Assembly (NCBI GenBank): GCA_037445915.1
Contig: JBBIJQ010000008.1
Span: forward strand, 1-46,872
Reading direction: 5' to 3'
Length of the DNA: 46,872 nucleotides
Origin: Planctomycetales bacterium
GTDB lineage: Bacteria > 4484-113
The translations under genes and the position numbers were made by a program. Shown piece after piece: positions 6,521 to 42,098 of the stretch. The notes under the pieces are model-generated. The model was not told the DNA's origin and made no database searches. It was given only the letters and a program-made list of their open reading frames with translations. Positions within the stretch are counted from its first letter, which is position 1. Each line of letters opens with the position of its first letter.

Positions 6521-6522
6521 CT

Positions 6523-21893: not shown

Positions 21894-23513
21894 TTAGGAC
21901 GAGGCCTTCTTCTTCGTGGAAATGGCTCCGGCCATGAGCTTCTCAATCTCGTCCTTGTCGGCATCCATGATATACGGAATGCCGCTGATTTCAGCGGCCT
22001 GCGGTGTGAGCGCGGCGAGGTCGTCGCGGGTCATGTGCTCAAGGCTGAATCGGCGGCTGCCAGCCATTAGTTGCCGCAAGCCTTGCCCGAGGCGTTCGTA
22101 GTAGGTGTATAGGCCAAGCGCGCCGGTCGGCACTTTCTCAAACTCCTCGTCGCCAAGCTGGTGGCGCAGCTCGGCTGCAGTGACGAAGATTTCGTCTTTG
22201 GTGTTGCCAAAACGCTCAATGTAAACAGGAACCTGCTGCTCGTCAATCGTGCGGCCGATGGTCTTGCCGACCATTGCGGCGGCGATAGGGCTCCGCGCCA
22301 TGCCGATAAGCTTCACAAACGGCGCGCCAATGGCGAGTCCCTTGAATATCTGGTCTTCAAAGGTGAATCCGCCGGCGAGCGCCAGCGCAGGGACATGCGC
22401 CCCGCTGTCGGACAGCCGCTTGGCAAGCAGGTAGAGCATGGAGTGCAGCTCAACCGGCGGGACGCCCCATTCGTTCATCATGCGCCAGGGGCTCATGCCG
22501 GTGCCGCCGCCTGCTGCGTCAACCGTAAGCAGGTCAATGCCGTATTTGGAAGCAAAAACCAGCGCGCGCGCGAGGTCGGCGGGACGGTATGCGCCGGTCT
22601 TGAGGAATATGTATTTCGCGCCGGCCTTCCGCAGCTCTTCGGTGCGCTGGGCGAAGCTCTCTTCAGTAACCATTCCAACCCGCGAGTGGCGTTCAAATTC
22701 CTTGAATGTGCCGCGCTCAAACGAGCGGATGACATTGGGGTCAGTCGGGTTGGGCAGGACGATGTAGCCGCGCTCGTAGAGCATCTGCGCCTTCTTGAGG
22801 CTGCGGATTTTTACTTCGCCGCCGATGTCCTTCGCGCCCTGGCCCCATTTCATCTCAACGACTTCCGCGCCGAGTTTCTCAATCGCGTATTCCTGCACGC
22901 TGAGGCGGGTATCTTCAATGTTGGCTTGGACGACTATGGCGCCGTAGCCGTCGCGCTGGTTGTCCTTAAACAAGTTGACGCGGCGCTTTAGGTCAACGGT
23001 GTCCACCACGCGCCCGTCCTTAATAACGACTTCGGGATCCATCCCAACAACGTTTTCGCCGATTGTGAGGCCGGTGCCGGCAAGCGCGGTGCCGATGGCG
23101 AGCCCTTCCCAGTTGTTCTTGGCGATATCGGTTGAGCCGATGCCGGGGATAATCCACGGCAACCGGAACTTGAGGCCATTGTCGTGGCCGAAGCGCACTT
23201 CCAGGTTCACCGCGGGGAAGATTGCTTTGTTGCTGTCGGCTTCAACGCCGTGCGCGCCGACGCAGGTGCCCATGATGTTGAAATGGGAATAATCAACGGG
23301 GTAGGCCTTTTCTGACGCGGTTGTGATGACGCCGAAAGGCTGCGGGTAGATTACTTCGTGGCCTCGGTATGCGGACTTGCCGATCTCGCACATGCCGATG
23401 CAGCCGTCAACGCATGTGACGCACATCCCTGAGTTGGGAGTCACCGAGCCCTCGGTGCGGTTCTTGGTCAGCGTCGCCGCCGAAGAGTTAACCCTTGAGA
23501 ACGTGATTGGCAT
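21894..23513 (-). CDS. FMN-binding glutamate-synthase-family protein (GltB domain-2-like, stand-alone)
   Basis: Glu_synthase TIM-barrel signatures (...LTVDAAGGGTGMSPW..., LALAGGF). It has an N-terminal Cys cluster, CVTCVDGCIGMCE, rather than the canonical internal 3Fe-4S Cys motif. GGAGG precedes the ATG. Confidence 0.85.
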   Translation of the reverse strand: MPITFSRVNSSAATLTKNRTEGSVTPNSGMCVTCVDGCIGMCEIGKSAYRGHEVIYPQPFGVITTASEKAYPVDYSHFNIMGTCVGAHGVEADSNKAIFPAVNLEVRFGHDNGLKFRLPWIIPGIGSTDIAKNNWEGLAIGTALAGTGLTIGENVVGMDPEVVIKDGRVVDTVDLKRRVNLFKDNQRDGYGAIVVQANIEDTRLSVQEYAIEKLGAEVVEMKWGQGAKDIGGEVKIRSLKKAQMLYERGYIVLPNPTDPNVIRSFERGTFKEFERHSRVGMVTEESFAQRTEELRKAGAKYIFLKTGAYRPADLARALVFASKYGIDLLTVDAAGGGTGMSPWRMMNEWGVPPVELHSMLYLLAKRLSDSGAHVPALALAGGFTFEDQIFKGLAIGAPFVKLIGMARSPIAAAMVGKTIGRTIDEQQVPVYIERFGNTKDEIFVTAAELRHQLGDEEFEKVPTGALGLYTYYERLGQGLRQLMAGSRRFSLEHMTRDDLAALTPQAAEISGIPYIMDADKDEIEKLMAGAISTKKKASS

Positions 23514-23547
23514 TACAGTATCCCTCCAGAATTTCCTTTCGTTAGTC

Positions 23548-24219
23548 CTACTTTATTTCGCAAGCGACGCACGGTTGCATGTAGCACATCATGTCGTCGA
23601 ATTGTTCCTTCTCAACGCACGGAGGCGTAAGGTTTGCGCACCCGCCGCATATCACCTTTTCGGGGTCGGAGTAGGTGCAGCGCAGCTGGCATGCGGGGCA
23701 GACATATATGCACCCGCCGCAAAGCCGGCAAACCTCCGACTTGATGTCAAAGGGAGTGCCCAGCGCCCGCTTCTCGCCGCGCGCGCTGAAGCCGATGGCC
23801 TTCGCCACCATTTGTTCTTCGCACATGCGCACGCAAAGCCCACAGAGGATGCAGTCCTCATGCTCCTGGCGGAAGCGCTGCTGCATGATTTGGTGCGCCG
23901 AGGCGAGGTCTTGGATGACCTTGCTCTGCGGACAGCTAGCCAGTAGCAGTTCTAGCACCATCTTGCGCGCGCGCAAGACGCGGTTGGTTGCGGTGCGCAC
24001 CTTTATGCCTTCCTCGGCCGGGTAGGTGCAGGATGAAACAAGCTTCGCGCGCGTCCCTTCTCCGATTTCCACCACGCAAAGCCTGCATGCGCCGTATGGC
24101 GAAAGGCCTTCCATGTGGCAAAGCGTGGGGATGGGGAAGCCCAGGAACTGCGCGGCTTCAAGTATCGTCGTGCCTTTCTCAACGCTCACTTGAAGGCCGT
24201 TTATCGTCAGGGTAATCAT
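23548..24219 (-). CDS. 2Fe-2S plus poly-4Fe-4S ferredoxin-like protein (NuoG/HydA N-terminal type)
   Basis: MITLTINGLQVSVEKGTTILEAA...CHMEGLSPYGACRLCVVEI (Fer2_4 type), then CILCGLCVRMC and CRLCGGCIYVCP clusters plus a Cys-rich tail. The ATG at 24219 overlaps the upstream stop (ATGA) and follows GAGGTG. Confidence 0.8.
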   Translation of the reverse strand: MITLTINGLQVSVEKGTTILEAAQFLGFPIPTLCHMEGLSPYGACRLCVVEIGEGTRAKLVSSCTYPAEEGIKVRTATNRVLRARKMVLELLLASCPQSKVIQDLASAHQIMQQRFRQEHEDCILCGLCVRMCEEQMVAKAIGFSARGEKRALGTPFDIKSEVCRLCGGCIYVCPACQLRCTYSDPEKVICGGCANLTPPCVEKEQFDDMMCYMQPCVACEIK

Positions 24220-27200
24220 GCTTCTTTCACCTCGCGCGCGGCGCACTCAGCTAGGTGCTGCGTGAAATCAAGGTCGCAGCGAAGGCATCGCCGCGCTTCA
24301 AGCAAGGCATCCTTCACTTCAAGCGTTAGCTCAACCTCGTCAAACGAGCCGTGCCGTTTCTCCACCGGGATAGACGGCGGCTTGGCGCGCCTGCTGGCTG
24401 CCAGCGCGACATCATCAAGCACTAGGGGCTCAATGTAGTGCTCGGGCAAGCGTGGGGATGCAGGTTGCACCAGGTTTTCGCCGCGCAAATAGCGCGCAAT
24501 CATGACAGCCGCCTTCTTGCCCGCGGCGATTGCTTCAACGACCGTGTTCGGGCCGGTGACGACGTCGCCGCCGGCGAATACGCCTGGCCTGCTCGTTTCC
24601 AGCGTATCGGGATTAACATTCAGGCCCCCGCCCTTCGTGACGGCAATGCCCATGCTTTCAATGAACTCAATATCGGGTGTGTCGCCGATGGTCACGATGA
24701 GCGTGTCCAGCTTGGCGACGAACTCGCTGCCTTCAGCCGGCACAGGCTTGCGCCTGCCGCTTGCGTCAACTTCGCCTTCAACGTTACGGATGAACTCCGC
24801 GCCGAGGAGCTTGCCGCTCTCGGAAAGGATGCGCACAGGCGATACCATCGTTTCCAGCGTAATGCCTTCGTGCAGCGCTTCTTCAACTTCTTCGGGCAGC
24901 GCGGGCATCTCCTGCTTCGTGCGGCGGTAGAAAATCGTGACGCTTTCAACTTCGGGCTGGCGTAGCGCGACGCGCGCGGCGTCAACCGCCGAGTCGCCGC
25001 CGCCGATGACGCCTACATGGCCTTTCGCAAGCACTTCGCCTCTCAGGTTGAACGCCTTAAGGAAGCGCAGCGCGGGATGAACGCCCGCTAGGTCTTCGCC
25101 TTCAATGTTGAGCAGGCGGCTCTTGTGCGCGCCCATCGCCAGGAAGACGGCCTTATAGCCCTCATTGAACAGGCGGTCAAGGCTGATGTCTTTGCCAAGC
25201 GCCGTGCCGCACTTAAGCTCAACGTTATCGTCAACCAGCGATTGGATTTCCCTGCTTATCGTCTCGCGCGGTAACCGGTAGGCGGGAATGCCGGTTGTGA
25301 GCATACCGCCGGGGCGGTCGTCAGCCTCAAGAACAGTGACTTTATAGCCGTAGCGCGAGAGGTAATGCGCCGCGCTGAGTCCCGCGGGCCCTGCGCCGAT
25401 TACAGCAACCCTATCATCATGCCTCTCCTGAGAGTATTGCGGCTTGAAGATGGAAGGGTTGGTGCGGTCGGTGACGAAACGCTTGAGGGCGCGGATAGCG
25501 ATAGGCGCGAAACCGGTTTGGCCGCTGCGGCATTTGTATTCGCAGGGATGGCTGCACACGCGCGCGCACACCGACGGGAACGGGTTGTATTCGCGGATGG
25601 CGCGGTATGCGTCTTCGTATTCGCCCTTGGCGATGTGTGCGATATAGCGCCAGGCTTCCGTGCCCAGCGGGCATGCGCTCTGGCATGGCGCGCCAACAAG
25701 GTCGGGACAGACGAACGCGTCGCAGCGCTTATTGATAATGTGCTGTTCAAATTCGCCGCGAAAGTAACGCAGCGAGCTAAGGACAGGATTGGGCGCAGAC
25801 TGCCCAAGGCCGCACATGGTCGTATCTTTCACGGTCAGCGCAAGCTCCTGGAGCAGGTCAAGGTGCATAAGCGTTCCCTTGCCGCGCGATATATCGTCCA
25901 GCAGCTCCCACATGCGCTGCGTGCCCTTGCGGCAGGTGAAGCACTTGCCGCAAGACTCGTCTTTCAGGAAGCTCATATAGTATTTGGCGACGTCCACGAT
26001 ACAGGTCGTCTCGTCCATCACGATCATGCCGCCGGAGCCCATGATTGAGCCGGCGTTGCTGAGCGTGTCGTAGTCAACCTTTAGGTCAAACTGGTCGGCG
26101 GGAATGCAGCCGCCGGAAGGCCCGCCGGTCTGGACGGCCTTAATCCTCTCATTGCGCAGCGGGCCTCCGCCGATATCATAGACAATCTCGCGGATGCTGA
26201 TGCCCATCGGGACTTCTACCAGGCCGGTGTTTTGTATCTTGCCGACGAGGCTGAATATCTTGGTGCCGGAATTGTTGGGGGTGCCGACTTTGGCGAACTC
26301 CTCCGCGCCGGCTTCAATAACGAGCGGGATATTCGCCCAGGTTTCTACATTATTAATGGCTGTCGGCAGCCCGTTGATGCCACGCTGCACTGGAAACGGC
26401 GGCCTCTGGCGCGGCTCGCCCATCTTGCCTTCAATGGAGCGGATGAGAGCAGTCTCTTCGCCGCAGACAAACGCGCCCGCGCCGCGCACTATCTCCATTT
26501 CAAAGCTGAACCCGCTGCCAAGTATGTTTTTGCCTAACAACCCCAGTTCCTGCGCTTGGGTGATGGCAATAGTAAGGTGCTTGATGGCAAGCGGGTATTC
26601 GTTGCGGACATATATGACGCCCTTGGTCGCGCCGGTGGCAAAAGCGCCGATGAGTATCCCCTCAATGATGCAGTGGGGGTTGCCTTCCAGCAACGCGCGG
26701 TCCATATACGCGCCGGGGTCTCCCTCATCGGCGTTGCAGACGAGGTATTTGCCTTTGGACCCGTCTTGCGCCGCCAGAAGTTCCCATTTCACGCCAGTGG
26801 GGAAACCTCCTCCGCCGCGCCCGCGCAATCCCGAAGCCTTCACTTCGCCGACGGTCCACGCGGGATCGCCTTTCCCTAGGGTCTTTACGAAAGGGGCATA
26901 GCCGCCGTTCTCTATGTAGTGGTAAATGCGGATAGGGTCAACCTTTTCATTGCGCCCAAGGATGCTGCGCACTTGCTTTTTATAGAACGGAAGGTCCCTT
27001 TGATTCTCAATCGGCTTGCCGCTGCGGGGCTCAATGTAGAGTAAGTTGCGTAAAACGTTGCCGCTGGCCACGGCGGTAACGATGCGCGCCATGTCTTCCG
27101 GCGACACGCGCGGGTAGAACGTGCCATGCGGCTCAACGAGCACAGAAGGTTCGGTCTCGCAGTAGCCGTGGCAGCCGGTAACGCGAAGCTCAACGCGCCC

Positions 27201-27401
27201 GATAAGGTTGCGCTGGAGAAGCTCCCGCTTAGTCACGCGGATGAGGTCGTTGGCCCCGCTGGCCTGGCCGCATGTCCCTGCAGAAATGACAATCGTGGGA
27301 ATGCCCCTTGGGCGGCCGGCAATGAGGCGCTCTTGCAAGGTTTTGAAAGCAGCGATAGTGTTTAGGTTCTCCATCTGGGATTCCCGTTCTGCCCCCCGCA
27401 T
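24216..27401 (-). CDS. NuoF/HydB-like NADH-FMN subunit fused to a GltD/NfnB-like FAD/NAD(P)H oxidoreductase (1061 aa)
   Basis: N-terminal Trx-like 2Fe-2S (SAGTCGQASG...VTGCHGYCE). FMN/NADH site GLRGRGGGGFPTGVKW and CNADEGDPGAYMDR, and N3 cluster ESCGKCFTCR...CGLGQS. GltD part: CQSACPLG...VCARVCSHPCEYKC, VAVIGAGPAGLSAAHYL and VGVIGGGDSAVDAA. The start could alternatively be the ATG at 27374. Confidence 0.88.
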   Translation of the reverse strand: MRGAERESQMENLNTIAAFKTLQERLIAGRPRGIPTIVISAGTCGQASGANDLIRVTKRELLQRNLIGRVELRVTGCHGYCETEPSVLVEPHGTFYPRVSPEDMARIVTAVASGNVLRNLLYIEPRSGKPIENQRDLPFYKKQVRSILGRNEKVDPIRIYHYIENGGYAPFVKTLGKGDPAWTVGEVKASGLRGRGGGGFPTGVKWELLAAQDGSKGKYLVCNADEGDPGAYMDRALLEGNPHCIIEGILIGAFATGATKGVIYVRNEYPLAIKHLTIAITQAQELGLLGKNILGSGFSFEMEIVRGAGAFVCGEETALIRSIEGKMGEPRQRPPFPVQRGINGLPTAINNVETWANIPLVIEAGAEEFAKVGTPNNSGTKIFSLVGKIQNTGLVEVPMGISIREIVYDIGGGPLRNERIKAVQTGGPSGGCIPADQFDLKVDYDTLSNAGSIMGSGGMIVMDETTCIVDVAKYYMSFLKDESCGKCFTCRKGTQRMWELLDDISRGKGTLMHLDLLQELALTVKDTTMCGLGQSAPNPVLSSLRYFRGEFEQHIINKRCDAFVCPDLVGAPCQSACPLGTEAWRYIAHIAKGEYEDAYRAIREYNPFPSVCARVCSHPCEYKCRSGQTGFAPIAIRALKRFVTDRTNPSIFKPQYSQERHDDRVAVIGAGPAGLSAAHYLSRYGYKVTVLEADDRPGGMLTTGIPAYRLPRETISREIQSLVDDNVELKCGTALGKDISLDRLFNEGYKAVFLAMGAHKSRLLNIEGEDLAGVHPALRFLKAFNLRGEVLAKGHVGVIGGGDSAVDAARVALRQPEVESVTIFYRRTKQEMPALPEEVEEALHEGITLETMVSPVRILSESGKLLGAEFIRNVEGEVDASGRRKPVPAEGSEFVAKLDTLIVTIGDTPDIEFIESMGIAVTKGGGLNVNPDTLETSRPGVFAGGDVVTGPNTVVEAIAAGKKAAVMIARYLRGENLVQPASPRLPEHYIEPLVLDDVALAASRRAKPPSIPVEKRHGSFDEVELTLEVKDALLEARRCLRCDLDFTQHLAECAAREVKEA

Positions 27402-27435
27402 AGCGGGAGCAGGAAGTTCTTGGGATTGGCAGCGC

Positions 27436-28284
27436 TCAGAAATTGACGCCGCTTAGGTCAAGCATGTGCCCTCTGCATCCCCGGCGGGTGCAAATATGCA
27501 CCATTCCACCGCCACGCACAGACATCGGCAGCATCGGAGCGCCGCAGTCATTACAGCGGGCCGCGCCAAGGGCCTCGCCGTGGCAGTGTGGGCAAAAGAA
27601 ATGGACTACCGTATCCTCCGGTATTGCGTGCTCTGACGAGATGTTGTAGCTGCCATACAGGCTGGAGAGGCAAACCCACCCGTGCTTGTCGCCGAATGTA
27701 GCTGTAACGCGGATTGACGGGTGGCCATCCAAGAGATGGTTGTGATCCATCAAGCTGCGGTTGCACTTCGGGCAAGCCGCATCCAACGGGATGATGCAGT
27801 GGTCTGCGTCAGCTTCGGCAAAGTCAAGCCCTGCGCGGGCTTTCCCCAGGATTTCGCGGACATTGGACTTTTCCATCTTGGAGAAGTAATGGCCGTCAAT
27901 AGTCGCGATTGGCCCCAGCGCGCAAGCGCCAAGGCAGTTCACCGTCTCAAAGGAGAATTCCTTGTCGGGAGTAGTCTCGCCCGAAACAATGCCCAGTTGG
28001 CGCTCAAACTCCTTAGCCACGCCAGCCCCGCCGCGCACATGGCAGGCTGTGCCCAGGCACGCAGACACTAAGTGCTTCCCCCGGGGCTTGAGGCTAAATG
28101 AGCGGTAGAAAGTTGCTACGCCATAAATATCCACCAGCGAGCGGCCGGTGGTTTCGGCGACCTTGCGCAGCGCGTCGGCCGGAAGGTAGTTGTACTTGGC
28201 CTGCACTCTTTCAAGGATGGCGATAAGGCCGTCCTGGGCGTCTGGATTCAGCTCAAGCGCGGCAATGATTGCGTCAGGTTCCAC
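27436..28284 (-). CDS. NuoE/HydC-like 2Fe-2S subunit with a roughly 115-aa Cys/His-rich C-terminal extension
   Basis: The core ...VATFYRSFSLKPRGKHLVSACLGTACHVRG...VNCLGACALGP carries the four 2Fe-2S Cys. The extension has CPKC...CPHC..C.DCG...ICTRRGCRGH, which looks like zinc ribbons. GTG start after GGAG. Confidence 0.85.
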   Translation of the reverse strand: MEPDAIIAALELNPDAQDGLIAILERVQAKYNYLPADALRKVAETTGRSLVDIYGVATFYRSFSLKPRGKHLVSACLGTACHVRGGAGVAKEFERQLGIVSGETTPDKEFSFETVNCLGACALGPIATIDGHYFSKMEKSNVREILGKARAGLDFAEADADHCIIPLDAACPKCNRSLMDHNHLLDGHPSIRVTATFGDKHGWVCLSSLYGSYNISSEHAIPEDTVVHFFCPHCHGEALGAARCNDCGAPMLPMSVRGGGMVHICTRRGCRGHMLDLSGVNF

Positions 28285-28329
28285 TAATAATCTCCAGTTT
28301 GGGGTAAGGCGCAGGTCGCTGTGTGCGGC

Positions 28330-28635
28330 TTACTGGTACTGCTCGCAATACCAAACGCCCCGGGGCGACTCGTGAGCGCAGTTGCCGTGGTAATCGCAGT
28401 TCCCGCACAAGCCTTTGGTAGCGCCGTTGCCGTTGGGCGAAGCTTCAGCGGGCGCGACAGCCCGTCCGGGCTCGTGTGAAAGCGGGCCGTGGTCGTCAAA
28501 CATGTCGCAATACATCACGTCTCCGCCGGCAGCCTTGCGGTTGCAGCAGGTCTCGGCGTGGTTGCAGGTAGCGCAAAGCCCGGAGTAAGCGGGGATTGCT
28601 GTGATTTCCTTAATAGTTGTAGTAGTCGTTGCCAT
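28330..28635 (-). CDS. small Cys-rich protein (101 aa) with an internal duplication; first gene of the lower redox operon
   Basis: MATTTTTIKE...GLCATCNHAETCC...VMYCDMF....GLCGNCDYHGNCAH...VWYCEQYQ. The ATG at 28635 lies 8 nt after GGAGGA. The track ORF is extended upstream artificially. Confidence 0.6.
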   Translation of the reverse strand: MATTTTTIKEITAIPAYSGLCATCNHAETCCNRKAAGGDVMYCDMFDDHGPLSHEPGRAVAPAEASPNGNGATKGLCGNCDYHGNCAHESPRGVWYCEQYQ

Positions 28636-28812: not shown

Positions 28813-28857
28813 AATCCTGATGAGGAATCCCTGATATTGAACTTCGCGAATCCTGAT
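28813..28857 (-). promoter_or_regulatory. three direct repeats ATCAGG(G)ATT upstream of the lower redox operon
   Basis: On the plus strand, AATCCTGAT at 28813-28821, AATCCCTGAT at 28826-28835 and AATCCTGAT at 28849-28857. These lie between the NarL-type regulator gene and the Cys-rich ORF. Confidence 0.35.
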
Positions 28858-28894
28858 AGCGCTGGCTAGCTGGCGGGAAGGTCAAGCCGGGAAT

Positions 28895-29560
28895 TCAGGG
28901 ATCCAAGCAGGTCAACCCTTCGCGGATTGCATACTTTGTTAGCTCGGCAACGCTCCGTAACTCAAGCTTGTCCTTTATCCTGCGCCGGTGCGCCTCAATA
29001 GTCTTCACGCACACGCCGAAAACTTGTGCGATATCTTTTGTGCTCCTGCCTTCCGCAAGCAGGCGGAGCACCTCGCGCTCCCGTTCGGTGAGTAAGCAGG
29101 GTGACGGTGCCTGGGCAGGTGACAGGTGGCGGACATAGCTTTCAACGACTGTGTCGGCAATGCCCGGGCTGAAGAAGGTTAGGTTCGCACCCACTGCGCG
29201 GATGGCGCGCGCGAGATCTTCTTGCGCGCAGTCTTTAAGTAGGTACCCCGTCGCGCCGGCGCGTAGCATCTCCATAACATACTGCCCGTCAGCGTGCATT
29301 GAAAGCCCCACTACGCGGGTTGAGGGTATCTCTGTGCGAATCTGCCTTGTCGCCTGAATCCCATTCAAGCGCGGCATCCCGATGTCCATTACTACAACAT
29401 CAGGCTTCATCTCCAGCGCGATTTGGACTGCCATCTGCCCGTCAGCAGCTTCGCCGATAACGAGCATGTCCGGTTGGAGGTTAATGAGCGTGCGCAAGCC
29501 GTCGCGGAGGATCTTGTGGTCATCCACTACTACAACGCCGATTGTTGGGCCATCTTGCAT
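28895..29560 (-). CDS. NarL/FixJ-type response regulator (REC + LuxR HTH)
   Basis: REC domain (VVVDDH...VVVMDIGMP..., phospho-Asp context) and a C-terminal LTEREREVLRLLAEGRSTKDIA...VKTIEAHRRRI LuxR-type HTH. Confidence 0.9.
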   Translation of the reverse strand: MQDGPTIGVVVVDDHKILRDGLRTLINLQPDMLVIGEAADGQMAVQIALEMKPDVVVMDIGMPRLNGIQATRQIRTEIPSTRVVGLSMHADGQYVMEMLRAGATGYLLKDCAQEDLARAIRAVGANLTFFSPGIADTVVESYVRHLSPAQAPSPCLLTEREREVLRLLAEGRSTKDIAQVFGVCVKTIEAHRRRIKDKLELRSVAELTKYAIREGLTCLDP

Positions 29561-31530: not shown

Positions 31531-31556
31531 AGGTTCAATTTACCAGTGGGAGTAGG

Positions 31557-32918: not shown

Positions 32919-32932
32919 GCCCCCAAATTCCA

Positions 32933-35031: not shown

Positions 35032-38000
35032 TTACAGCACACGAAATCTTTCCTCGCCGACTTCGCGGAGGCTGCGCTTGTAGCGCTCGCATTCCGTCAT
35101 CGCCGGCGCGATGGGCGTTGGCGCGGTCTTCACGTCCGCGACTTGCAGCTTTCCTTTGCCGTCCCAGGAATGCGGCTCGCCCTCATTCCAGTAGAACGCA
35201 AAGCGCTCGCCTGTATTGTCCCGCACGAGCAGCCTCAGCTCCGATGTGGCTTCGGCAAGCGTGCCGGGAACGCGCAGCCCCAACGCAGCCGCAAGCCTTG
35301 CCAGCACTTCCCATCCTTGCACGCCCGAAGGCGGGTTTACGGCTTTGGTGAATCGGGCCGAGCGCCCCTCATAGTTGAAGCGCGTGCCTTCCGACTCCAG
35401 GTATGTCGTTCCGGGCAAGGCGATATCGGCAAGCAGCGCCGTTTCCGTCTGCGCCCAATCCATTGCAACAGTAAACTCAACATTGGCGAAGTACGAGGAG
35501 AAGCGGTCGCTCTGCATCGGGTCTTCGCCTATGATGAGCGCAGCCTTAACGCATCCGCTGGTGAGCTTATACATAAGCTCGCTGCGGCTGTGCGCGCCGG
35601 GTAGCCCAGGCGCGCCTTTGCGCCCGGGCGCGAAGCGCGGGTCTGCGCCCGAAAGCTCAATGCCCGCCCCGTTAGCAGTCTGGTGCGGCAACAGGATATC
35701 AGCCTGAACGCCCGCTGCGCCAAGCAGAATGGCCAGGTTGGCAAGCGTAACCATCCCTCCGGGCGACTGGTCCTGCGGGCGGTCAGGGCTATGCACGATG
35801 GCGACGCGCTTTGCCGCCCGGATGAGATCGGTGGCGGCGGTTATCTCCTTCTCGTTAACTCCGGTTACGGCAGCAGTTGCCTGCAAGCCATAGTCGCGCA
35901 TGTCGGCAAGGAACTCCGTGCCGCCTGGTAGTTTCTTCACAGCGCCATGGCTGATGAAGCCGCTGTCCAGCATCGCCTGCAAGACGCCGTTCCAGAGCAG
36001 CCCAGAGCGTCCGCGCATCGGGTCAAGCGTTACCGCGGCGAGAGCTTCAAGCGCGTCGCGGCTGGAGCTGCAAGTGATAAGCTTCGCGCCTCGCCTAACC
36101 GCTTCCATTATCTCTACGCCAAGGATGAGCTGATCGGATACTGTATCGGTATTGTCGCAGATTATTAGGTCAGCGAGCTTTACAGCGCGGCTGCCGGCGG
36201 TTGATGCGGTGAAACCCAGCGATGCGTCAAGAACGCCGCTTTCAACGCCGCTAGCCAGCATTGCCAGCGAGCCAATGTTCGCGGTGCCCAGCCCTTCGCG
36301 GGCGATGCGCGCGGCAAGGAACATCTCTTCGGCGGTTAGCTCCGGCGAGGCGAATACGGCGACTGCGTCCGCACCGTGCTTCTCAGCGGCCTTCTTGAGG
36401 AAGCGTGCGGCCTTTTCAATCCCTTCTGCGGCCTCAAGCTTCAGGTGCGTCCCGCCTGAACGTTGCATTGCCTTTTCAAGCCTTTGCTGCTTGAGGAATA
36501 GTTCAATGCCAAAGCGCCCGTAACGGCAAAGGTACTCGCCCGGCGCGCCTGATGACGAAACCCAGTAACATCCTTCGCCCAGCGTGTGCAGCGTCATCGT
36601 GCACCCCACCGAGCATAGCCCGCAGCTTGTCTTCGCAAGGTCGGCGAGCAGCGGTGAGCGCCCGGGGAACGGGTATTTGTCGGTGAGAGCGCCGGTAGGG
36701 CAGCTGTCAATGCAGTTCCCGCAGCTGATGCAGTTCGTCTGCGCGAGAGAGTCATTCATCGCCGGGCGCATCTCAGTCCTGAATCCGCGCCCAACCAAGC
36801 CGATCGCGGAAATTGGCAAAACGATAGCGCAGGTTCTTATGCAGCGCGTGCAGAGGATGCACTTGTTCGGGTCGTAGGAAACGTGCGGGTGGCGGTTGTC
36901 CACGCGGTGCTTGCGCACGTATCCCGCAAACCGCGTCATGTCCACGCCGTACTCGTCGGAGTACAGCCGCAGCGGGCAGTCATAATACCGCACGCAGCCG
37001 CAAGAAAGGCATCGGTCGCACTCGTGCGCTACGTCTTCGTGCTCGTAGCCAAGCGAGACTTCTTTGAAGCTGCCTTCGCGCTCTACAACAGGGATTTCGT
37101 GGATTTCATGGCGCGGGCTTTCCTTCACATCGCCGATATCAGCCTGGCCGGGCTTGCCCCAGAAGTCCTTGCGTACTATAAATGGCTCATGGGGCATCTG
37201 CTCGCCGCTCAGGTAGCTGTGGATAGCGTAAGCGGCGCGCTGGCCGTCACGGACAGCATCAATCACAACCGTAGGGCCGTCGTCCGCAGCGTCGCCGCCG
37301 GAGAACACGCCGTCAATGCTGGTCTTCATCGTGTTGTTGTCCACGACGATGGTTTTCCAGCGGGTAATCGCGGGTAAATCTTCGCCTCCCGCGATTCCAT
37401 CCAGCACCGGCTCCTGCCCGATTGCGGAGACTGCGATATCGCAAGGCAGCTCAAATTCCGAGCCTTCAATGGGAACAGGCCGCCTGCGCCCGGACGCGTC
37501 CGGCTCGCCGAGCTTCATCAGGATGCAGCGCAGTGCTTTGAGCTTCCCGTTCTCGCTGACAATGCCCACCGGCGCCGCAAGCTCAAGTATCTTTATGCCT
37601 TCTTTGAGGCAGTCTTCAATCTCCATTTTGTCGGCGGGCATCTCCGCCTTGGTGCGGCGGTAGAGGATGATGACCTTCTCCGCGCCCAATCGCCAGGATG
37701 TGCGCGCCACATCCATCGCGGTATTGCCGCCGCCTACGACTACAATGGTGCCTGCTAGCGGAGTGTGGTCTTCAGTCTTCTCGCGCAGGAACTCCGCGCC
37801 GCGCGTGATGCCTTCGGTCTCGTTCTCGCCCTCAACCATCATCTCTTTCCCGGCCATCGCGCCTACGGCGATGAACACGGCGCTATGCCGCTTGCGTAGC
37901 TCTTCCAGGCTCACGTCCTTGCCCACGCGCACGCCAAGCTCAATGCGCACGCCTGCGCGAAGGATGTATTCAACTTCACGGTCAAGCACGTCATCGGGCA

Positions 38001-38718
38001 GTCGGTAGGTTGGGATGCCATATCGCAGCATTCCGCCGGTGCGGGGGAGGGCTTCGTAAATCACCGGGTCGTAGCCCATCTTGCCGAGGAACCAGGCCGC
38101 AGTCAGCCCGGCAGGGCCGCTTCCGATTATTCCTACGCTTTTCCCGCGAGAAGGCTGGCGCTCCACTAAGCCGTCGTATGCGCCGGGGAAGTCGGTAACG
38201 TAACGCTTGATGTTATTGATGCCCACAGGCTCGTCAACTTCCACCCGCTGGCAGACGACTTCGCACTTGCGCACGCAAACGCGGCCGCATATGGCAGGCA
38301 AGGGGTTTGTCTCGCGCACAAGGTCAGCGGCTTCGCGGTATAGCCCCATCGCAGCTAATGCGATATAGCCCTGCGCGTCCACGCCTGCAGGGCATCCCAG
38401 CTTGCACGGCGATAGGCAGTCCGCGTAGTGGTTGGAGAGCAGCAGCTCAAGAGCTGTTTTGCGGGAGGTCTTCACGCGCTCGTTATGCGTCTCAATCTTC
38501 ATTCCCTGCGCGATGCGGGTTGCGCACGCTGGCACGAGGTTGGGCCGCCCGGCCACTTCTACGACGCAAAGGAAGCACGAGCCGTAAGGCTTCAGCTCCG
38601 GCGAATGGCACAACGTGGGGATGTCGGCGAGCTTATGCTCCTGAACGGCCTGGAGTATCGTCTTGCCGGCGGGGGCGCTTATCTCCTGGCCGTTTATCTC
38701 AATGGTTACAGTATCCAT
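35032..38718 (-). CDS. 1228-aa triple fusion: 2Fe-2S ferredoxin, GltD/NfnB-like FAD/NAD(P)H module, then NuoG/FdhA-like Fe-S and molybdopterin-fold domain without an active-site Cys/Sec
   Basis: CHSPELKPYGSCFLCVVEV (2Fe-2S). GltD clusters CLSPCKLGCPAG...ICGRVCVRKCEVVC with VGIIGSGPAGLTAAWFL and IVVVGGGNTAMDVA. HECDRCLSCGC, CILCTRCIRTC and CISCGNCIDSCP, then the Molybdop_Fe4S4-like CGLCSVGC...LCRYGRFG. The C-terminal roughly 520 aa have a NuoG-like ending (...AVNPPSGVQGWEVLARLAAALG). Confidence 0.85.
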   Translation of the reverse strand: MDTVTIEINGQEISAPAGKTILQAVQEHKLADIPTLCHSPELKPYGSCFLCVVEVAGRPNLVPACATRIAQGMKIETHNERVKTSRKTALELLLSNHYADCLSPCKLGCPAGVDAQGYIALAAMGLYREAADLVRETNPLPAICGRVCVRKCEVVCQRVEVDEPVGINNIKRYVTDFPGAYDGLVERQPSRGKSVGIIGSGPAGLTAAWFLGKMGYDPVIYEALPRTGGMLRYGIPTYRLPDDVLDREVEYILRAGVRIELGVRVGKDVSLEELRKRHSAVFIAVGAMAGKEMMVEGENETEGITRGAEFLREKTEDHTPLAGTIVVVGGGNTAMDVARTSWRLGAEKVIILYRRTKAEMPADKMEIEDCLKEGIKILELAAPVGIVSENGKLKALRCILMKLGEPDASGRRRPVPIEGSEFELPCDIAVSAIGQEPVLDGIAGGEDLPAITRWKTIVVDNNTMKTSIDGVFSGGDAADDGPTVVIDAVRDGQRAAYAIHSYLSGEQMPHEPFIVRKDFWGKPGQADIGDVKESPRHEIHEIPVVEREGSFKEVSLGYEHEDVAHECDRCLSCGCVRYYDCPLRLYSDEYGVDMTRFAGYVRKHRVDNRHPHVSYDPNKCILCTRCIRTCAIVLPISAIGLVGRGFRTEMRPAMNDSLAQTNCISCGNCIDSCPTGALTDKYPFPGRSPLLADLAKTSCGLCSVGCTMTLHTLGEGCYWVSSSGAPGEYLCRYGRFGIELFLKQQRLEKAMQRSGGTHLKLEAAEGIEKAARFLKKAAEKHGADAVAVFASPELTAEEMFLAARIAREGLGTANIGSLAMLASGVESGVLDASLGFTASTAGSRAVKLADLIICDNTDTVSDQLILGVEIMEAVRRGAKLITCSSSRDALEALAAVTLDPMRGRSGLLWNGVLQAMLDSGFISHGAVKKLPGGTEFLADMRDYGLQATAAVTGVNEKEITAATDLIRAAKRVAIVHSPDRPQDQSPGGMVTLANLAILLGAAGVQADILLPHQTANGAGIELSGADPRFAPGRKGAPGLPGAHSRSELMYKLTSGCVKAALIIGEDPMQSDRFSSYFANVEFTVAMDWAQTETALLADIALPGTTYLESEGTRFNYEGRSARFTKAVNPPSGVQGWEVLARLAAALGLRVPGTLAEATSELRLLVRDNTGERFAFYWNEGEPHSWDGKGKLQVADVKTAPTPIAPAMTECERYKRSLREVGEERFRVL

Positions 38719-38727
38719 CAGTATTCC

Positions 38728-40500
38728 TTAGCCTTTGAAAACCGCGTCAAAGTTGCAGCACGTGATGCACTTGCCGCACTTTGCGCAGAGAGCCATGTCA
38801 ATAGTGTGGAGTTCTTTCGCCTTGCCTGCGATGGCGTCCACCGGGCAGTTCTTCGCACAGATGGTGCAGCCGGTGCACTTCTCCGGGTCAATGAAGTAGC
38901 TCACGAGAGTGGCGCAGCTCTTCGCGGGGCACTTGCGCTCGTTAATGTGCGCTTCGTATTCGTCTAGGTAGTAGCGCACCGTTGTAAGCACCGGGTTGGG
39001 CGCGGTCTGGCCAAGCCCGCACAGACTCGCTTCCTTGATCTGCTCCGCGAGCAGCTTGAGCTTCGGGATATCCTCCGGCGTGCCCTCGCCGCGCGTGATG
39101 CGCTCCAACACTTCAAGCATGCGCAGCGTCCCGATGCGGCAGAATGTGCACTTTCCGCAGGATTCGTCTTGCGTGAAGTTGAGGAAGAAACGCGCGATCT
39201 CCACCATGCACGTCGTGTCGTCCATAACGACCATGCCGCCGCTTCCCATAATCGCGCCGGTCGCGGGGATGTTTTCAAAATCAACCGGTGTGTCGCCTAG
39301 CGCGGCGGGGATGCAGCCGCCGGACGGACCTCCCATCTGCACGGCCTTGAACTTGCGGCCTTTGGAGATGCCGCCGCCGATTTTAAAGACGAGGTCATTG
39401 ATGGTCATCCCCATCGGCACTTCTGCAAGGCCGCCGTGCTCCACCTGACCGGCCAGGGCGAAGACTTTGGTGCCGGGGGATTTCTCGGTGCCAAAGGAGG
39501 TGAACGCCTTCGCGCCGTTCACGAGTATCCACGGAATGTTGGCGTAGGTCTCAACGTTGTTGTTGTTCGTCGGCTTCTGCCACAAGCCTTTCTCGGCCGG
39601 AAACGGCGGGCGAATGCGGGGCATCCCGCGCTCGCCTTCAATGGAGGCAAACAGCGCAGTTTCCTCTCCGCACACGAATGCGCCTGCACCCTGCTTGATC
39701 TTCACGTCAAAGGCGAAGCCTGAGCCCATTATGTCCTTGCCGAGATAACCTTTCTCGCGTGCCGCGATAATTGCGATGTTCAGGCGCTTGATGGCGAGCG
39801 GGTATTCCGCGCGGCAGTATATGTAGCCGTAAGTCGCGCCGATTGCGCGCGCGCAGATTATCATGCCCTCAAGGACCGAATGCGGGTCGCCTTCCAGCAC
39901 CGAGCGGTCCATAAACGCGCCCGGGTCGCCTTCGTCAGCGTTGCACACGACATATTTCTCGTCGCTGGGATAGCCCGCCGCGAATGACCATTTCATCCCC
40001 GTGGGGAATCCCGCGCCGCCGCGCCCGCGCAGCCCTGAAGCCTTCACCTCGCCGATGATTTCCTCGGGCTTCATTTCAAAGAGCGCTTTGCGCAGCGCAT
40101 CGTATCCGCCAGCGGCCTCGTATTCATCAACCGACTCAGGGTCAATGACGCCGCAGTTGCGCAACACGATGCGGTTTTGCAGCGCGAGGAAGCCCGCCTC
40201 CACGCCGCTGCATTCGCCCTTGCCGTCCTCGCGGTAAACGATGTAGCCGGGGATGGCTTCGCCGCCGATGAAATGCTTCTTATAGATTTCCTCGGCGCGC
40301 TCCGGCGTGACGTCGCCGTAGAGGATGCGCGCCCCGTTCTCGCGCACTTCCACCAGCGGCTCGCGGTAGCACATGCCGATGCAGCCGGTAATGGCAGGCT
40401 CGCTGCCGCTTCCTGCGGCGAGTTCCTTTAGTTTTTCAAATGTGTCTCGGGCTCCTGCGGAAAGCCCGCAGGTGCCCATTCCAACGAGTATCTTACGCAT
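38728..40500 (-). CDS. NuoF/HydB-like NADH-FMN subunit with an N-terminal Trx-like 2Fe-2S and a C-terminal 2x[4Fe-4S] domain
   Basis: GMGTCGLSAG...GCIGMCYREP, GLRGRGGAGFPTGMKW, CNADEGDPGAFMDR, ESCGKCTFCR...CGLGQT, CTGCTICAKNCP and CAKCGKCITCC. I prefer the ATG at 40500, after GGAG, over the TTG at 40503. Confidence 0.9.
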   Translation of the reverse strand: MRKILVGMGTCGLSAGARDTFEKLKELAAGSGSEPAITGCIGMCYREPLVEVRENGARILYGDVTPERAEEIYKKHFIGGEAIPGYIVYREDGKGECSGVEAGFLALQNRIVLRNCGVIDPESVDEYEAAGGYDALRKALFEMKPEEIIGEVKASGLRGRGGAGFPTGMKWSFAAGYPSDEKYVVCNADEGDPGAFMDRSVLEGDPHSVLEGMIICARAIGATYGYIYCRAEYPLAIKRLNIAIIAAREKGYLGKDIMGSGFAFDVKIKQGAGAFVCGEETALFASIEGERGMPRIRPPFPAEKGLWQKPTNNNNVETYANIPWILVNGAKAFTSFGTEKSPGTKVFALAGQVEHGGLAEVPMGMTINDLVFKIGGGISKGRKFKAVQMGGPSGGCIPAALGDTPVDFENIPATGAIMGSGGMVVMDDTTCMVEIARFFLNFTQDESCGKCTFCRIGTLRMLEVLERITRGEGTPEDIPKLKLLAEQIKEASLCGLGQTAPNPVLTTVRYYLDEYEAHINERKCPAKSCATLVSYFIDPEKCTGCTICAKNCPVDAIAGKAKELHTIDMALCAKCGKCITCCNFDAVFKG

Positions 40501-40544
40501 CAATCATCTCCGAAGAAGAGTAGGAGCGCATCATTGCGCAGGCG

Positions 40545-41039
40545 CTAGCCCGCGACCCCCGCTTCCGTGGGCTTCTTTGCCTTGCGGCGCACCCCGCGCA
40601 GAATCTTGCGCACCGCCGCGGGCGACAGCTTCCCATGCGTGTCTTCGTCAATCATTATCACCGGCGAAAGCGAGCAGCAGCCGATGCAGGCGACGGTGAA
40701 CAGCGTGAACAGCCCGTCTTCGCTTGTGCCTCCGACTTCAATCGCCAGCTCGTCTTGGATGGTTTCCACGATGAGCCGCGCACCGTTGACATGGCATGCA
40801 GTCCCGACGCAGGCGCGGATAACGTGCTTACCCATCGGCTGGAGGCGGAATTGGCTGTAGAATGTGATAACGCCGTAAACGGCGGATTCGGGTATGTTCG
40901 TCACCGCCGAGATATATTTGATGGCACGGCGTGGAATGTATCCGAAGTAGTTCTGCGCCGACTGGAGCAACGGTATCAGCTCGCCGGGAGCGCCGTCGTA
41001 GCGCCAGAGCCTGTAGTTGAAATCAGGTTCGTTCGTCAT
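40545..41039 (-). CDS. NuoE/HydC-like 2Fe-2S subunit
   Basis: LIPLLQSAQNYFGYIP...VITFYSQFRLQPMGKHVIRACVGTACHVNG...VACIGCCSLSPV carries the four conserved Cys. Confidence 0.9.
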   Translation of the reverse strand: MTNEPDFNYRLWRYDGAPGELIPLLQSAQNYFGYIPRRAIKYISAVTNIPESAVYGVITFYSQFRLQPMGKHVIRACVGTACHVNGARLIVETIQDELAIEVGGTSEDGLFTLFTVACIGCCSLSPVIMIDEDTHGKLSPAAVRKILRGVRRKAKKPTEAGVAG

Positions 41040-41105
41040 CGGCTTGTCTCCGAGTAGCGTTGCCCGTTCTCGGGCGGCATTACTCCATTACTCCCACGGT
41101 TAGCG

Positions 41106-42098
41106 TTAAGCATCCATCAACCGGATAATCTTTGCCTCGCGCACCCGCAACACGCCGTCAATCTTGTTGAGCTTTTCAATGACGCGGGGCATCTTGCCGA
41201 CTGCGCCGCTCTCGGTAATCATCCCGACCAGCTTGGCGCCGTCGTCAATGACGTCGCAGAAGATGACCTCGTCCACAAAAAACACGGTCGTGAATATCTG
41301 CTGTATCGCGCTCTTGTCAATGTCAACGATGATGTAGCTCGTCGTGCCGATGCTTTCCTTCATCAGCTTGGGCGACGGGCCGCGCACTGTGCGCTGGTAG
41401 ATGTCAATGAAGTCCTTCACGTCGCGGTCTAGCTTCGGGCGCTCAACCGGCGACATGGAAACGACCTCAATCCCCTTTATCATGCGCACTTCGTTAAACA
41501 GCTTGTTGATGTGCTCCTGCGAAGCCGCTTGCGCAAGGATGATGATGTCAACGTCGCCTCGCACGGCGTCGCACTGCACTATGCCGTCAAGGTGGAAGAG
41601 CTTGTTGTAAATCTCAAGGCTCTGGTCGGGGTCGGTCACGCGGATGGTCATGTAAGCCGTTACCGACTCGCGCATGGCTGGCTCGCCGGGCGCATCGGGT
41701 GTCGTGGGGCTAAGAGTGCTCGATCCTTCGGCAAGCTCGTTTAACGCGGCGACAAGCTCCGGTATCTCAAATGGCTTGTCCAGGTATCCGGTGTTATGCT
41801 CGCCGAGCGCGGTGGTCTTCAGGAACTCGTCGCCGAAGCCCGTGATGACTAAGACCGGCAGGTCGGGGAACTCGCTCTTGATGACCTTAAGTATCTTGAG
41901 GCCGTCAATGTCGGGCATGAAAATGTCGGTGATGAGGTAGTCGTAGCCGAGGCCCTTGGCGCGCGCGGCGCTCAGCTCGTGGATAGCTGAAAGCCCGTCC
42001 GGGCAGGCAGTGCAGGTGTAGCCCTCCTGGGTCAGGCCGAAAGTAAGATTGCGGCGTATCTCAGGCTCGTCGTCAATGATAAGAACCCTCTTGCTCAA
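41106..42098 (-). CDS. response regulator receiver fused to two Lrp/AsnC-type ligand-binding (RAM) domains, with no DNA-binding domain seen
   Basis: REC: KRVLIIDDEPEIR...YLITDIFMPDIDGL...DKP. Then two AsnC_trans_reg-like repeats, AYMTIRV...LDGIVQCDAVRGDVDIIIL...IKGIEVVS and SYIIVDI...VDEVIFCDVIDDGAKLVGMI...IDGVLRVRE. TTG start 6 nt after AAGGAGG. Confidence 0.75.
   Translation of the reverse strand: MSKRVLIIDDEPEIRRNLTFGLTQEGYTCTACPDGLSAIHELSAARAKGLGYDYLITDIFMPDIDGLKILKVIKSEFPDLPVLVITGFGDEFLKTTALGEHNTGYLDKPFEIPELVAALNELAEGSSTLSPTTPDAPGEPAMRESVTAYMTIRVTDPDQSLEIYNKLFHLDGIVQCDAVRGDVDIIILAQAASQEHINKLFNEVRMIKGIEVVSMSPVERPKLDRDVKDFIDIYQRTVRGPSPKLMKESIGTTSYIIVDIDKSAIQQIFTTVFFVDEVIFCDVIDDGAKLVGMITESGAVGKMPRVIEKLNKIDGVLRVREAKIIRLMDA

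Follow-up and report, generated by a model that had tools for sequence, protein, structure and literature searches.

A candidate glutamate synthase-like enzyme of the Bfu family encoded beside a StnABC/NfnABC operon in a Planctomycetales bacterium

We analyzed a DNA stretch of 46,872 nucleotides (nt) from a Planctomycetales bacterium (GenBank assembly GCA_037445915.1, contig JBBIJQ010000008.1); the whole stretch is called the window. Two redox operons are located on its minus strand. The lower operon (21894–28635) encodes a small Cys-rich protein, a NuoE-like protein, a NuoF–GltD fusion, a short BfuA, and a 539-amino-acid (aa) GltB-like protein predicted to bind flavin mononucleotide (FMN). 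The upper operon (35032–41039) encodes three proteins of the StnABC/NfnABC type. The reading that we hold to be probable, if only just, is that a Stn-type orthologue lies beside a separate complex, a Bfu-type NAD(P)H-linked glutamate synthase-like enzyme with a probable role in nitrogen assimilation.

Results

A GltB-like FMN protein ends the lower cassette

The 539-aa protein matched PF01645 above the cut-off (Table 1). Among 1.84 billion cluster representatives, 1083 matched it at E ≤ 1e-3. C31, C34, C38, C42, KWGQGAK, FERHSR, GGGTGMSP, and AGGF were kept down to 30% identity, and the N-terminal motif C31-x2-C34-x3-C38-x3-C42 was invariant. Judged from these sequences, the family has sharp limits and is only distantly similar to canonical glutamate synthase (GOGAT). 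NCBIfam has no model for this protein or for the small Cys-rich protein. PDB sequence and profile searches with the 539-aa protein gave nothing useful; the matches were an orotidine monophosphate decarboxylase (E 0.18), de novo designed TIM barrels, and, at no better than E 0.055, GOGAT.

The family was aligned with the FMN domain of E. coli GltB using hhalign (probability 77%, 350 columns). The QGAK motif (Q225–K228) was paired with E. coli Q934–K937, whereby the invariant K228 fell on K937. GGGTGMSP was paired with DGGTGASP and AGGF with DGGL (residues ~1014–1088). The invariant E233 was aligned with the equivalent of Gln943, six residues after the Lys. R248, conserved in at least 90% of the sequences, was one column off E. 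coli R957, the Arg located 20 residues past the Lys. We take the 2-oxoglutarate ligands to be Lys972 and Arg992 (Synechocystis numbering), the counterparts of the aligned Lys and Arg.

The 3D structure was predicted with AlphaFold 2 from an 81-sequence alignment, giving a predicted local distance difference test (pLDDT) score of 82.5 and a predicted template modeling (pTM) score of 0.86. This model replaced an earlier one made from 33 sequences (≥80% identity), which had a pLDDT of 54 and for which Foldseek returned generic TIM barrels. The Foldseek neighbors of the final model were FMN-dependent 2-hydroxy-acid oxidoreductases and type-2 isopentenyl diphosphate isomerase. The model thus predicts an FMN TIM barrel, one of a class of enzymes working at C2 of carboxylic acids. 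By its motifs and alignment, the protein appears to belong to the glutamate synthase sequence family, with a different iron–sulfur (Fe–S) site and without the other GOGAT domains. We propose that it is the catalytic (synthase-type) terminal subunit of the lower cassette.

The lower cassette is conserved across many phyla

The 539-aa FMN protein was used as the query for relatives. In a collection of 5.8 billion proteins, at least 8000 clusters matched it. Identity was 81% or more for each of the best 120 clusters, whose named sources were Ignavibacteriae, Bacteroidetes, KSB1, WOR-3, Zixibacteria, and Latescibacteria. Among genomes chosen as one per GTDB species, at least 589 relatives were confirmed. 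The best 80 of them, all from metagenome-assembled genomes (MAGs), were used for synteny analysis by tblastn with the window proteins; denominators below 80 are the loci with enough upstream sequence. These 80 relatives were 78–84% identical to the window protein. Their loci span Zixibacteria, Phycisphaerae, Planctomycetales, Pirellulales, Candidatus Scalindua, Ignavibacteria, Acidobacteriota, Bacteroidota, Latescibacterota, Verrucomicrobiota, Myxococcales, and Smithella.

The gene order was fixed across the 80 loci, and the FMN gene was always the last in the cassette. Upstream of it, BfuA was found in all 75 loci (68–88% identity), NuoF in 65 of 66 loci, and NuoE in all 59 loci. GltD was fused to NuoF in 52 of 66 loci, and the zinc-ribbon tail of NuoE was present in 57 of 59. 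The small Cys-rich protein preceded NuoE in at least 38 of 56 loci. This synteny indicates that the lower operon is one conserved multi-subunit unit.

Median identities were 81% for the FMN protein, 81% for BfuA, 66% for NuoF, 60% for NuoE, and 58% for GltD. Since the FMN protein and BfuA both reach 81% against 58–66% for the others, the terminal pair is the most constrained part. Their identity of about 80% between phyla points to strong constraint or recent spread.

Unequal conservation inside one operon was also observed. It could stem from very strong constraint on the catalytic pair or from a horizontal spread of this pair apart from the other genes.

A preliminary description of this DNA had found no recognizable catalytic partner for either NuoEF-type module and had regarded both operons as transhydrogenases. 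The GltB-like protein would then be an extra electron-transfer flavoprotein or an unrelated neighbor. We consider this very improbable. The upper operon is indeed predicted to encode a transhydrogenase, and the lower fusion does have both NADH and NADPH sites. However, no cassette member is more conserved than the FMN protein and BfuA, neither of which is ever missing, and the FMN protein retains the substrate-site motifs of a catalytic domain. In addition, one-fifth of the cassettes lack GltD and hence cannot encode NADH/NADPH transhydrogenases. For the lower operon, the GltB-like protein, as the conserved terminal module that always comes last, is a candidate for the partner said to be missing. 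A plain pyridine-nucleotide/ferredoxin oxidoreductase leaves out this FMN/Fe–S protein and its stand-alone relatives in nitrogen clusters.

Electron-input subunits of the lower cassette

The small protein encoded by the first cassette gene contains two C-x2-C-x5-C-x11-13-C repeats, with eight conserved Cys in total, and the motif GVWHCEEY. Its likely start, ATG 28635, gives 101 aa and agrees with the annotation of a near-identical MAG. It is a putative metal or Fe–S accessory subunit.

The NuoE-like protein resembles BfuC and was closest in the PDB to bifurcating HydC subunits. Its tail of about 125 aa gave weak Zn_ribbon and DZR matches, suggesting a double zinc ribbon. BfuA had 9mqx_A (247 aa) as its best PDB match (E 1.2e-38); its C-terminal extension contains eight further Cys and is family-specific.

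Residues 37–570 of the NuoF–GltD fusion matched A. mobile BfuB (7t2r_B) with an E-value of 1e-194. The B1 cluster motif CGKCxxC...C was kept. The B2-site ligands C467, S505, H554, C560, and C565 correspond to C438, C476, H525, C531, and C536 of 7t2r_B; in the Bfu family this site is described as Cys, Cys/Thr, His, Cys, and Cys. The B2-site His is near-universal in bifurcating BfuB and absent in non-bifurcating homologues (Schut et al. 2022, PMC9304861). The closest solved relatives of the lower NuoF were all bifurcating enzymes of the HydB type. Together with the NuoE-like BfuC, the NuoF-like BfuB appears to form an NADH module of the bifurcating Bfu/HydBC type.

The fusion differs from such proteins behind the B2 site. 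It lacks the ferredoxin-like domain that holds clusters B3 and B4, and the Fer4_20/GltD module directly follows C565. Unfused orthologues (14 of 66, e.g., in Zixibacteria) keep the 2×[4Fe–4S] C-terminus (CxxCxxCxxxCP...CxxCxxCxxxC). The B3 and B4 clusters are treated as invariant in bifurcating members (Schut et al., PMC9304861). At the N-terminus, a thioredoxin-like (B5) domain was detected (2Fe-2S_thioredx, 1.8e-4) with only three Cys (C44, C77, and C81). In Csac NfnB, Zn is located where Fe–S clusters have been proposed for other Bfu members.

The fused GltD contains GGGDSA, a motif of the NADP type (GxGxxA). It is of the StnC type, with 40% identity and a shared C-terminal extension that ends in RCLxC.

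Nitrogen genes and NtrC-type regulators near the FMN gene

Stand-alone clades of the FMN protein, found with a profile of divergent relatives, are 46–65% identical to the window protein and have the same 4-Cys motif. In an Archaeoglobus MAG, the relative is divergently oriented to a glutamine synthetase (GS) gene. In a Thermodesulfovibrionales MAG, it lies among nifH, a NifA-like activator, GS, a glutamine amidotransferase (GATase), a second GS, and NrpR. In another lineage, the genes for AmtB, PII, GATase, NAD synthase, GS, a regulator, and NrpR (280 bits) precede the FMN gene. In Calderihabitans maritimus, the FMN relative follows a REC-ANTAR regulator. In one case, it is followed by hisH/hisF-like genes, a ferredoxin, and NfnAB.

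Marker genes were counted within 7 kb in 80 metagenome loci of the stand-alone clades, many of which are on short contigs. NrpR was found in 13 loci, GS in 8, PII in 6, AmtB in 5, and the REC-ANTAR regulator in 3; at least 22 of the 80 loci had a nitrogen marker. An NfnAB-like pair and NuoE/NuoF were each found in 4 loci. A class-I GATase was rejected as a general glutaminase partner: it shares the cluster in two stand-alone contexts, one to several genes from the FMN gene, and was found in 1 of the 80 metagenome loci.

For the Bfu-linked form, the cassette of a Smithella MAG is followed after 81 nt by NrpR, next by a kinase gene and the gene for an NtrC-type activator, and PII–AmtB lie about 7 kb downstream. 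Homologues of the window's NtrC-type regulator were found upstream of the lower cassette in 33 of 49 loci and those of its kinase in 28 of 49. A substantial fraction of loci had a sigma-54 promoter of the −24/−12 type (TGGCAY-N5-TTGCW) ahead of the first cassette gene. The Smithella neighbors and the recurrent kinase/NtrC/sigma-54 arrangement make nitrogen assimilation the best-supported physiological setting, which for the Bfu-linked form relies largely on paralogues.

An NfnA-like (PyrK-type) gene and an NfnB/GltD-like gene sometimes adjoin stand-alone FMN relatives (loci L087, at 6003–11570, L130, L146, and L154). In L130 the pair is directly upstream on the same strand, and the L087 cluster also has a gene for a 61-aa ferredoxin. 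Such a pair would be a third electron-feeding route to the same catalytic module. The occurrence of the FMN protein alone or behind NfnAB-like genes fits a terminal module that takes electrons via its N-terminal cluster.

NuoE/NuoF adjoin divergent FMN clades (46–66% identity) in L095, L135, L151, and L159, where gene order and orientation vary. The Bfu core may therefore have become linked to the FMN protein more than once.

Evidence for and against a glutamate synthase-like function

Several observations weigh against a nitrogen-assimilating, glutamate synthase-like function. The PF01645 match was partial, covering profile positions 185–303 of 369, and the PDB profile search reached GOGAT only at E 0.055. 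In the hhalign alignment, the segment opposite the [3Fe–4S] motif C-x5-C-x4-C, ARSPIAAAMVGKTIGR, contains no Cys. In the Pfam scans, no N-terminal nucleophile (Ntn) amidotransferase domain (glutaminase, PF00310) was found in the 539-aa protein or in any cassette gene, and no GXGXG β-helix domain (PF01493) was found in the 539-aa protein. Foldseek ranked FMN 2-hydroxy-acid oxidases over GOGAT, and the protein could thus act on a different 2-oxo or 2-hydroxy acid. Nitrogen genes adjoined the Bfu-linked form in only 1 of 80 loci (that of Smithella); the remaining nitrogen contexts are those of stand-alone clades, which are paralogous. In the window, the leader of the lower operon did not contain the sigma-54 pattern TGGC-N8-TGC, and its sole GG-N10-GC candidate, identified by eye, was weak. 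NtrC-family activators also govern many processes other than nitrogen metabolism.

Part of this evidence is what an oxidoreductase for another 2-oxo or 2-hydroxy acid would lead one to expect. The lower complex would then be a Bfu-type enzyme with no part in nitrogen assimilation, such as a confurcating dehydrogenase for lactate, glycolate, or 2-hydroxyglutarate with a logic like that of the Ldh/Etf complex. By fold, the FMN protein is closest to flavocytochrome b2, glycolate oxidase, and lactate oxidase, the similarity to GOGAT is remote, the cassette encodes no glutaminase, and 79 of the 80 Bfu-linked loci have no nitrogen gene within 9 kb. Nevertheless, we regard such a function as rather unlikely. 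The 539-aa protein had a significant PF01645 match and no match to PF01070 (FMN_dh) at E ≤ 1e-3 in Pfam, and the GOGAT-specific QGAK...GGTGxSP arrangement is retained. Its 4-Cys relatives are repeatedly found beside NrpR, GS, PII, and AmtB, and NrpR comes directly after the Smithella cassette. The GltD partner is the classical electron donor of GOGAT.

A possible electron path

For the glutamate synthase-like function, we suggest the following path. The five lower proteins would form one complex, in which electrons would pass between the FMN of BfuB and the FMN of the 539-aa subunit via BfuA and the N-terminal 4-Cys cluster. The terminal subunit would reduce 2-iminoglutarate to glutamate. The 2-iminoglutarate would come from 2-oxoglutarate and free ammonia, or from a glutaminase encoded elsewhere. 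The complex would thus be a glutamate synthase of new architecture, turned on by an NtrBC-like sigma-54 system. GltD, with its FAD and NADPH site, replaces the ferredoxin-facing domain in about four-fifths of the relatives, which suggests that in the fused form NADP(H) takes the position held by ferredoxin in the unfused relatives.

The most speculative step is energy coupling. The 2-oxoglutarate + NH4+/glutamate couple lies at about −0.13 V, well above NAD+/NADH, and could therefore be the high-potential acceptor of a bifurcation. Exergonic imino-acid reduction by NADH would then drive the reduction of a low-potential partner, namely ferredoxin in unfused and NADP+ in fused forms. The same chain working in the confurcating direction is equally compatible with the sequences. 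Bifurcation or confurcation by the lower complex is thus a candidate activity. Bifurcation is not assured, because the fused BfuB lacks the B3 and B4 clusters. In its strongest form, this reading makes the lower cassette an electron-bifurcating glutamate synthase without a glutaminase domain and a widespread, hitherto overlooked route of reductive ammonium assimilation in energy-limited anaerobes, which we find doubtful but worth stating.

In a simpler scheme, the glutamate synthase would not bifurcate. NuoEF would be the NADH entry and GltD the NADPH entry to one chain, with neither ferredoxin nor coupling. With NADH as well as with NADPH, the GOGAT reaction is exergonic, and the missing ferredoxin-side clusters B3 and B4 of the fused form agree with this scheme. 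Non-bifurcating enzymes, too, can contain NuoEF homologues (PMC9304861). Against this, the B2-site His and Cys ligands, absent from non-bifurcating homologues according to Schut et al., are kept, and the nearest solved relatives are all bifurcating. The unfused orthologues hold a complete BfuB of the bifurcating type, and two separate pyridine-nucleotide sites are hard to account for without coupling. We judge the uncoupled scheme unlikely.

Regulators upstream of the lower cassette

The preliminary description had counted three embedded signaling systems between the operons and had placed a REC-RAM-RAM regulator in the upper operon. All these genes are present, and the three systems do not form one regulatory layer. 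The kinase/NtrC pair, in which the cytoplasmic PAS kinase would have an NtrB-like role, seems to travel with the lower cassette across many phyla, and the two LuxR-type regulators appear lineage-specific. The HisKA_3/LuxR hybrid was found near the cassette only in L003, the near-identical MAG, and in L022. The NarL-type regulator had a homologue in L022 (64% identity); beyond L003, this was the only one. In the regulator upstream of the Stn genes, the REC domain and one RAM domain were detected, and the proposed second RAM gave a faint ACT match alone.

The leader of the lower operon is about 260 nt long when ATG 28635 is the start. It contains three direct repeats, ATCAGG(G)ATT, with spacings of 13 and 4 nt, just downstream of the NarL-type regulator gene. 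They are possibly a binding site for the adjoining LuxR-type regulator. This leader has no clear sigma-54 promoter like those of other phyla, and control may have passed to the LuxR-type regulators in this lineage. A generic scan for promoters and terminators gave counts at chance level.

The upper operon is a StnABC/NfnABC orthologue

The three genes of the upper operon are separated by 41 and 9 nt. The 164-aa NuoE-like protein was closest in the PDB to 9n5u_C, an NfnC (2.5e-50), followed by 9bov_C and 8oh5_A (1.8e-44). The 591-aa NuoF-like protein matched S. ovata StnB (8oh5_B) over its full length (residues 4–588 against 2–581, E 1.6e-253). The best matches of the 1228-aa protein were C. 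saccharolyticus NfnA (9bov_A, 1178 aa, 1.5e-234), S. ovata 8oh5_C (1172 aa, 1.5e-208), and 9n5u_A. Its layout comprises a [2Fe–2S] domain, a GltD-like FAD/NADPH domain, and a NuoG-like domain with an inactive FdhF-like part. The alignment with the solved structures stops near residue 850–900, and the C-terminal FdhF-like part is backed by the Pfam Molybdopterin match (1.6e-16). Its GltD-like domain contains VVGGGNTAMD, which has the GxGxxA pattern used as the criterion for an NADP(H)-type dinucleotide motif (PMC7483475).

Stn genes encode a NuoE-like protein (~16–18 kDa), a NuoF-like protein (~65 kDa), and a GltD/NuoG-like fusion of ~126 kDa (PMC7483475). Within StnC, a GltD-like NADPH domain is joined to a NuoG-like domain, and residues 683–1172 form the inactive FdhF-like part (PMC7483475; PMC10482914). 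The earlier likening of this set to the Stn (Sporomusa-type Nfn) architecture is therefore borne out by orthology and by PDB matches to all three subunits. The molybdenum-less NuoG-like domain that had been called extra is a normal StnC feature. On these matches, the upper operon is an orthologue of a characterized complex, StnABC/NfnABC, can be named as such with confidence, and is already known biology. By orthology, its function would be that of an NADH/NADPH/ferredoxin transhydrogenase, in which NADPH oxidation would be coupled reversibly to the reduction of NAD+ and ferredoxin.

Layout of the locus and other features of the window

Between 42098 and 21894, the open reading frame (ORF) listing gives 13 consecutive minus-strand genes, with intergenic gaps of −31 to 137 nt. 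The compact same-strand layout described before was correct, and so was nearly every domain named in it, as the Pfam and NCBIfam scans showed. The gene number of 14 was not; its own items also add up to 13. These genes had further been seen as a single unit of about 20 kb. None of the 80 related loci pairs a Stn operon with the lower cassette, and the two were found side by side in no genome other than this one and its near-identical MAG. The GC content is even over the window (0.55–0.62), so the stretch carries no mark of foreign origin. One mobile "island" was ruled out by the even GC content and by the absence of a related locus with the same adjacency. The stretch contains two independent redox systems side by side, and the 20-kb island is a local juxtaposition.

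Table 1. Features of the window. Positions are counted from the first letter of the window; E-values are from Pfam unless stated otherwise.
Feature	Position	Strand	Evidence
Response regulator, REC + AsnC/Lrp-type RAM, upstream of the Stn genes	41106–42098	−	Response_reg 1.4e-24, AsnC_trans_reg 4.5e-07
StnA/NfnC, NuoE-like with [2Fe–2S], 164 aa	40545–41039	−	2Fe-2S_thioredx 1.6e-47
StnB/NfnB, NuoF-like FMN/NADH subunit, C-terminal 2×[4Fe–4S], 591 aa	38728–40503	−	Complex1_51K, NADH_4Fe-4S, Fer4
StnC/NfnA, 1228 aa	35032–38718	−	Fer2_4, Fer4_20, Pyr_redox_2, Fer4_Nqo3, Molybdopterin
Cytoplasmic PAS histidine kinase, NtrB-like role, partner of the NtrC-type gene	32933–34957	−	HATPase_c 6.9e-29, PAS folds
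NtrC-type sigma-54-dependent response regulator	31557–32933	−	Response_reg, Sigma54_activat 7.3e-43, AAA_lid_14
Hybrid HisKA_3 kinase–HATPase–REC–LuxR/GerE regulator	29698–31530	−	Pfam domains
NarL-type response regulator, REC + GerE	28895–29560	−	Pfam domains
Direct repeats ATCAGG(G)ATT (three)	28813–28857	−	
Small Cys-rich protein, first cassette gene, 101 aa	28330–28635 (ORF to 28803)	−	No Pfam/NCBIfam family
BfuC-like NuoE, [2Fe–2S] C-x4-C...C-x3-C, zinc-ribbon tail	27436–28284	−	2Fe-2S_thioredx 3.3e-44
BfuB-like NuoF–GltD fusion, 1061 aa	24216–27401	−	Complex1_51K 2.2e-46, NADH_4Fe-4S 2.8e-31, Fer4_20, Pyr_redox_2
Short BfuA, [2Fe–2S] + 2×[4Fe–4S], 232 aa	23548–24246	−	Fer2_4 1.3e-17, Fer4_7
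GltB-like FMN TIM-barrel protein, proposed catalytic subunit, 539 aa	21894–23513	−	PF01645 42.9 bits (cut-off 20.4)
Partial IS200-like Y1 transposase, 180-aa ORF	42469–43011	−	PF01797 4.1e-08
516-aa ORF	14445–15995	+	Annotation of near-identical MAG
dnaK	8314–10155		
dnaJ	6523–7656		
MerR/HspR-like gene	6074–6520		
clpB, first ORF, 571 aa	4362–6077	−	
clpB, second ORF, 238 aa	3649–4365	−	

The partial transposase ORF directly upstream of the REC-RAM gene is the only trace of a mobile element near the region. In the heat-shock cluster (dnaK, dnaJ, the MerR/HspR-like gene, and clpB), ClpB is encoded in two ORFs with a 4-nt overlap, and its AAA_2 domain is interrupted at profile positions 35/39. 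The split gene (3649–6077) points to a frameshift, with an assembly error or a pseudogene being possible. For the 516-aa ORF, the annotation of the near-identical MAG gives faint matches to multihaem cytochrome c families (Cytochrom_c3_2, MtrC/MtrF-like). It is located among housekeeping genes (folE, folP-like, and ftsH) downstream of the lower operon.

Discussion

The lower cassette is apparently undescribed, and it joins the Bfu family and the glutamate synthase-like enzymes. The earlier statement that the lower set matches no characterized complex was borne out by the literature searched. No account of a complex of NuoEF/BfuA with a PF01645 protein, or of a NuoF–GltD fusion, was found in the full-text literature searched, a scope that leaves subscription-only papers outside. 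The Bfu classification lists hydrogenase, Fdh, Nfn, F420, Wor, Bam, Codh, Por, Mbh, Nuo, and Rub types, and 18 of its 57 clades are uncharacterized (PMC9304861). Its text and one supplementary file make no mention of glutamate synthase or GltB/GltD (PMC9304861). The F420-dependent glutamate synthase of methanogens was rejected as a match, being a different multi-domain enzyme.

If the glutamate synthase-like reading is true, the Bfu family would gain a new third substrate in an amino-acid-forming reaction, and its ferredoxin branch could be rewired to NADP(H). A nitrogen-assimilation enzyme of many uncultured anaerobic phyla would also be identified. In current genomes, the cassette genes are labeled "NuoF", "FAD-dependent oxidoreductase", and "FMN-binding glutamate synthase family protein"; the NuoEF-like genes here appear to encode neither complex I nor hydrogenase subunits. 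If the complex also bifurcates, the energy of NADH-driven imino-acid reduction would be recovered as reduced ferredoxin, or as NADPH in the GltD-fused majority. The carriers would be Zixibacteria, Planctomycetota including Scalindua, Ignavibacteria, Acidobacteriota, Bacteroidota, Latescibacterota, Smithella, and others.

Among known systems, StnABC/NfnABC (PDB 8oh5, 9bov, and 9n5u; Bfu type 1) agrees with the upper operon in all three genes, in their order, and in domain architecture. The upper operon differs just by the adjoining REC-RAM regulator and about 50 additional residues. The lower operon differs from StnABC/NfnABC in that GltD is fused to BfuB and not to BfuA, the NuoG-like domain is missing, and a fourth, putatively catalytic subunit is present.

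FMN 2-hydroxy-acid oxidases and dehydrogenases are the best fold neighbors of the 539-aa protein, with target-normalized template modeling (TM) scores of 0.57–0.71, and both would be FMN TIM barrels acting at C2. In contrast to the 539-aa protein, they have no Fe–S cluster and no link to NuoEF or GltD; identity is 10–13%, and there is no family match.

With GltBD (PDB 1ea0, 2vdc, and 6s6s), the 539-aa protein shares the PF01645 FMN barrel and the QGAK, GGTGxSP, and GGx motifs. The lower cassette likewise has a GltD-type feeding module with FAD, 2×[4Fe–4S], and an NADPH site. The nitrogen-regulon context is shared mostly by the stand-alone relatives and by one Bfu-linked locus. The 539-aa protein differs from GltB in having no Ntn-glutaminase, central, or GXGXG domain, and its N-terminal C-x2-C-x3-C-x3-C replaces the 3Fe–4S motif. 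In the cassette, GltD is fused to NuoF, and NuoEF, predicted to oxidize NADH, and BfuA are interposed.

The closest relationship of the lower cassette as a whole is with Bfu type 2 (Schut et al. 2022, PMC9304861). Both have the BfuBC core with FMN, B1, the B2-site ligands, and C1, and a short BfuA of about 230 aa with [2Fe–2S] and 2×[4Fe–4S], for which the nearest solved structure is 9mqx chain A. Both also appear to place catalysis in an additional subunit of the same operon. A difference is that the third-substrate module of the lower cassette would be the PF01645 FMN protein. The cassette also adds the zinc-ribbon tail of BfuC, the 8-Cys tail of BfuA, and the small 8-Cys protein, and in most cassettes GltD stands in place of the B3/B4 ferredoxin-side domain.

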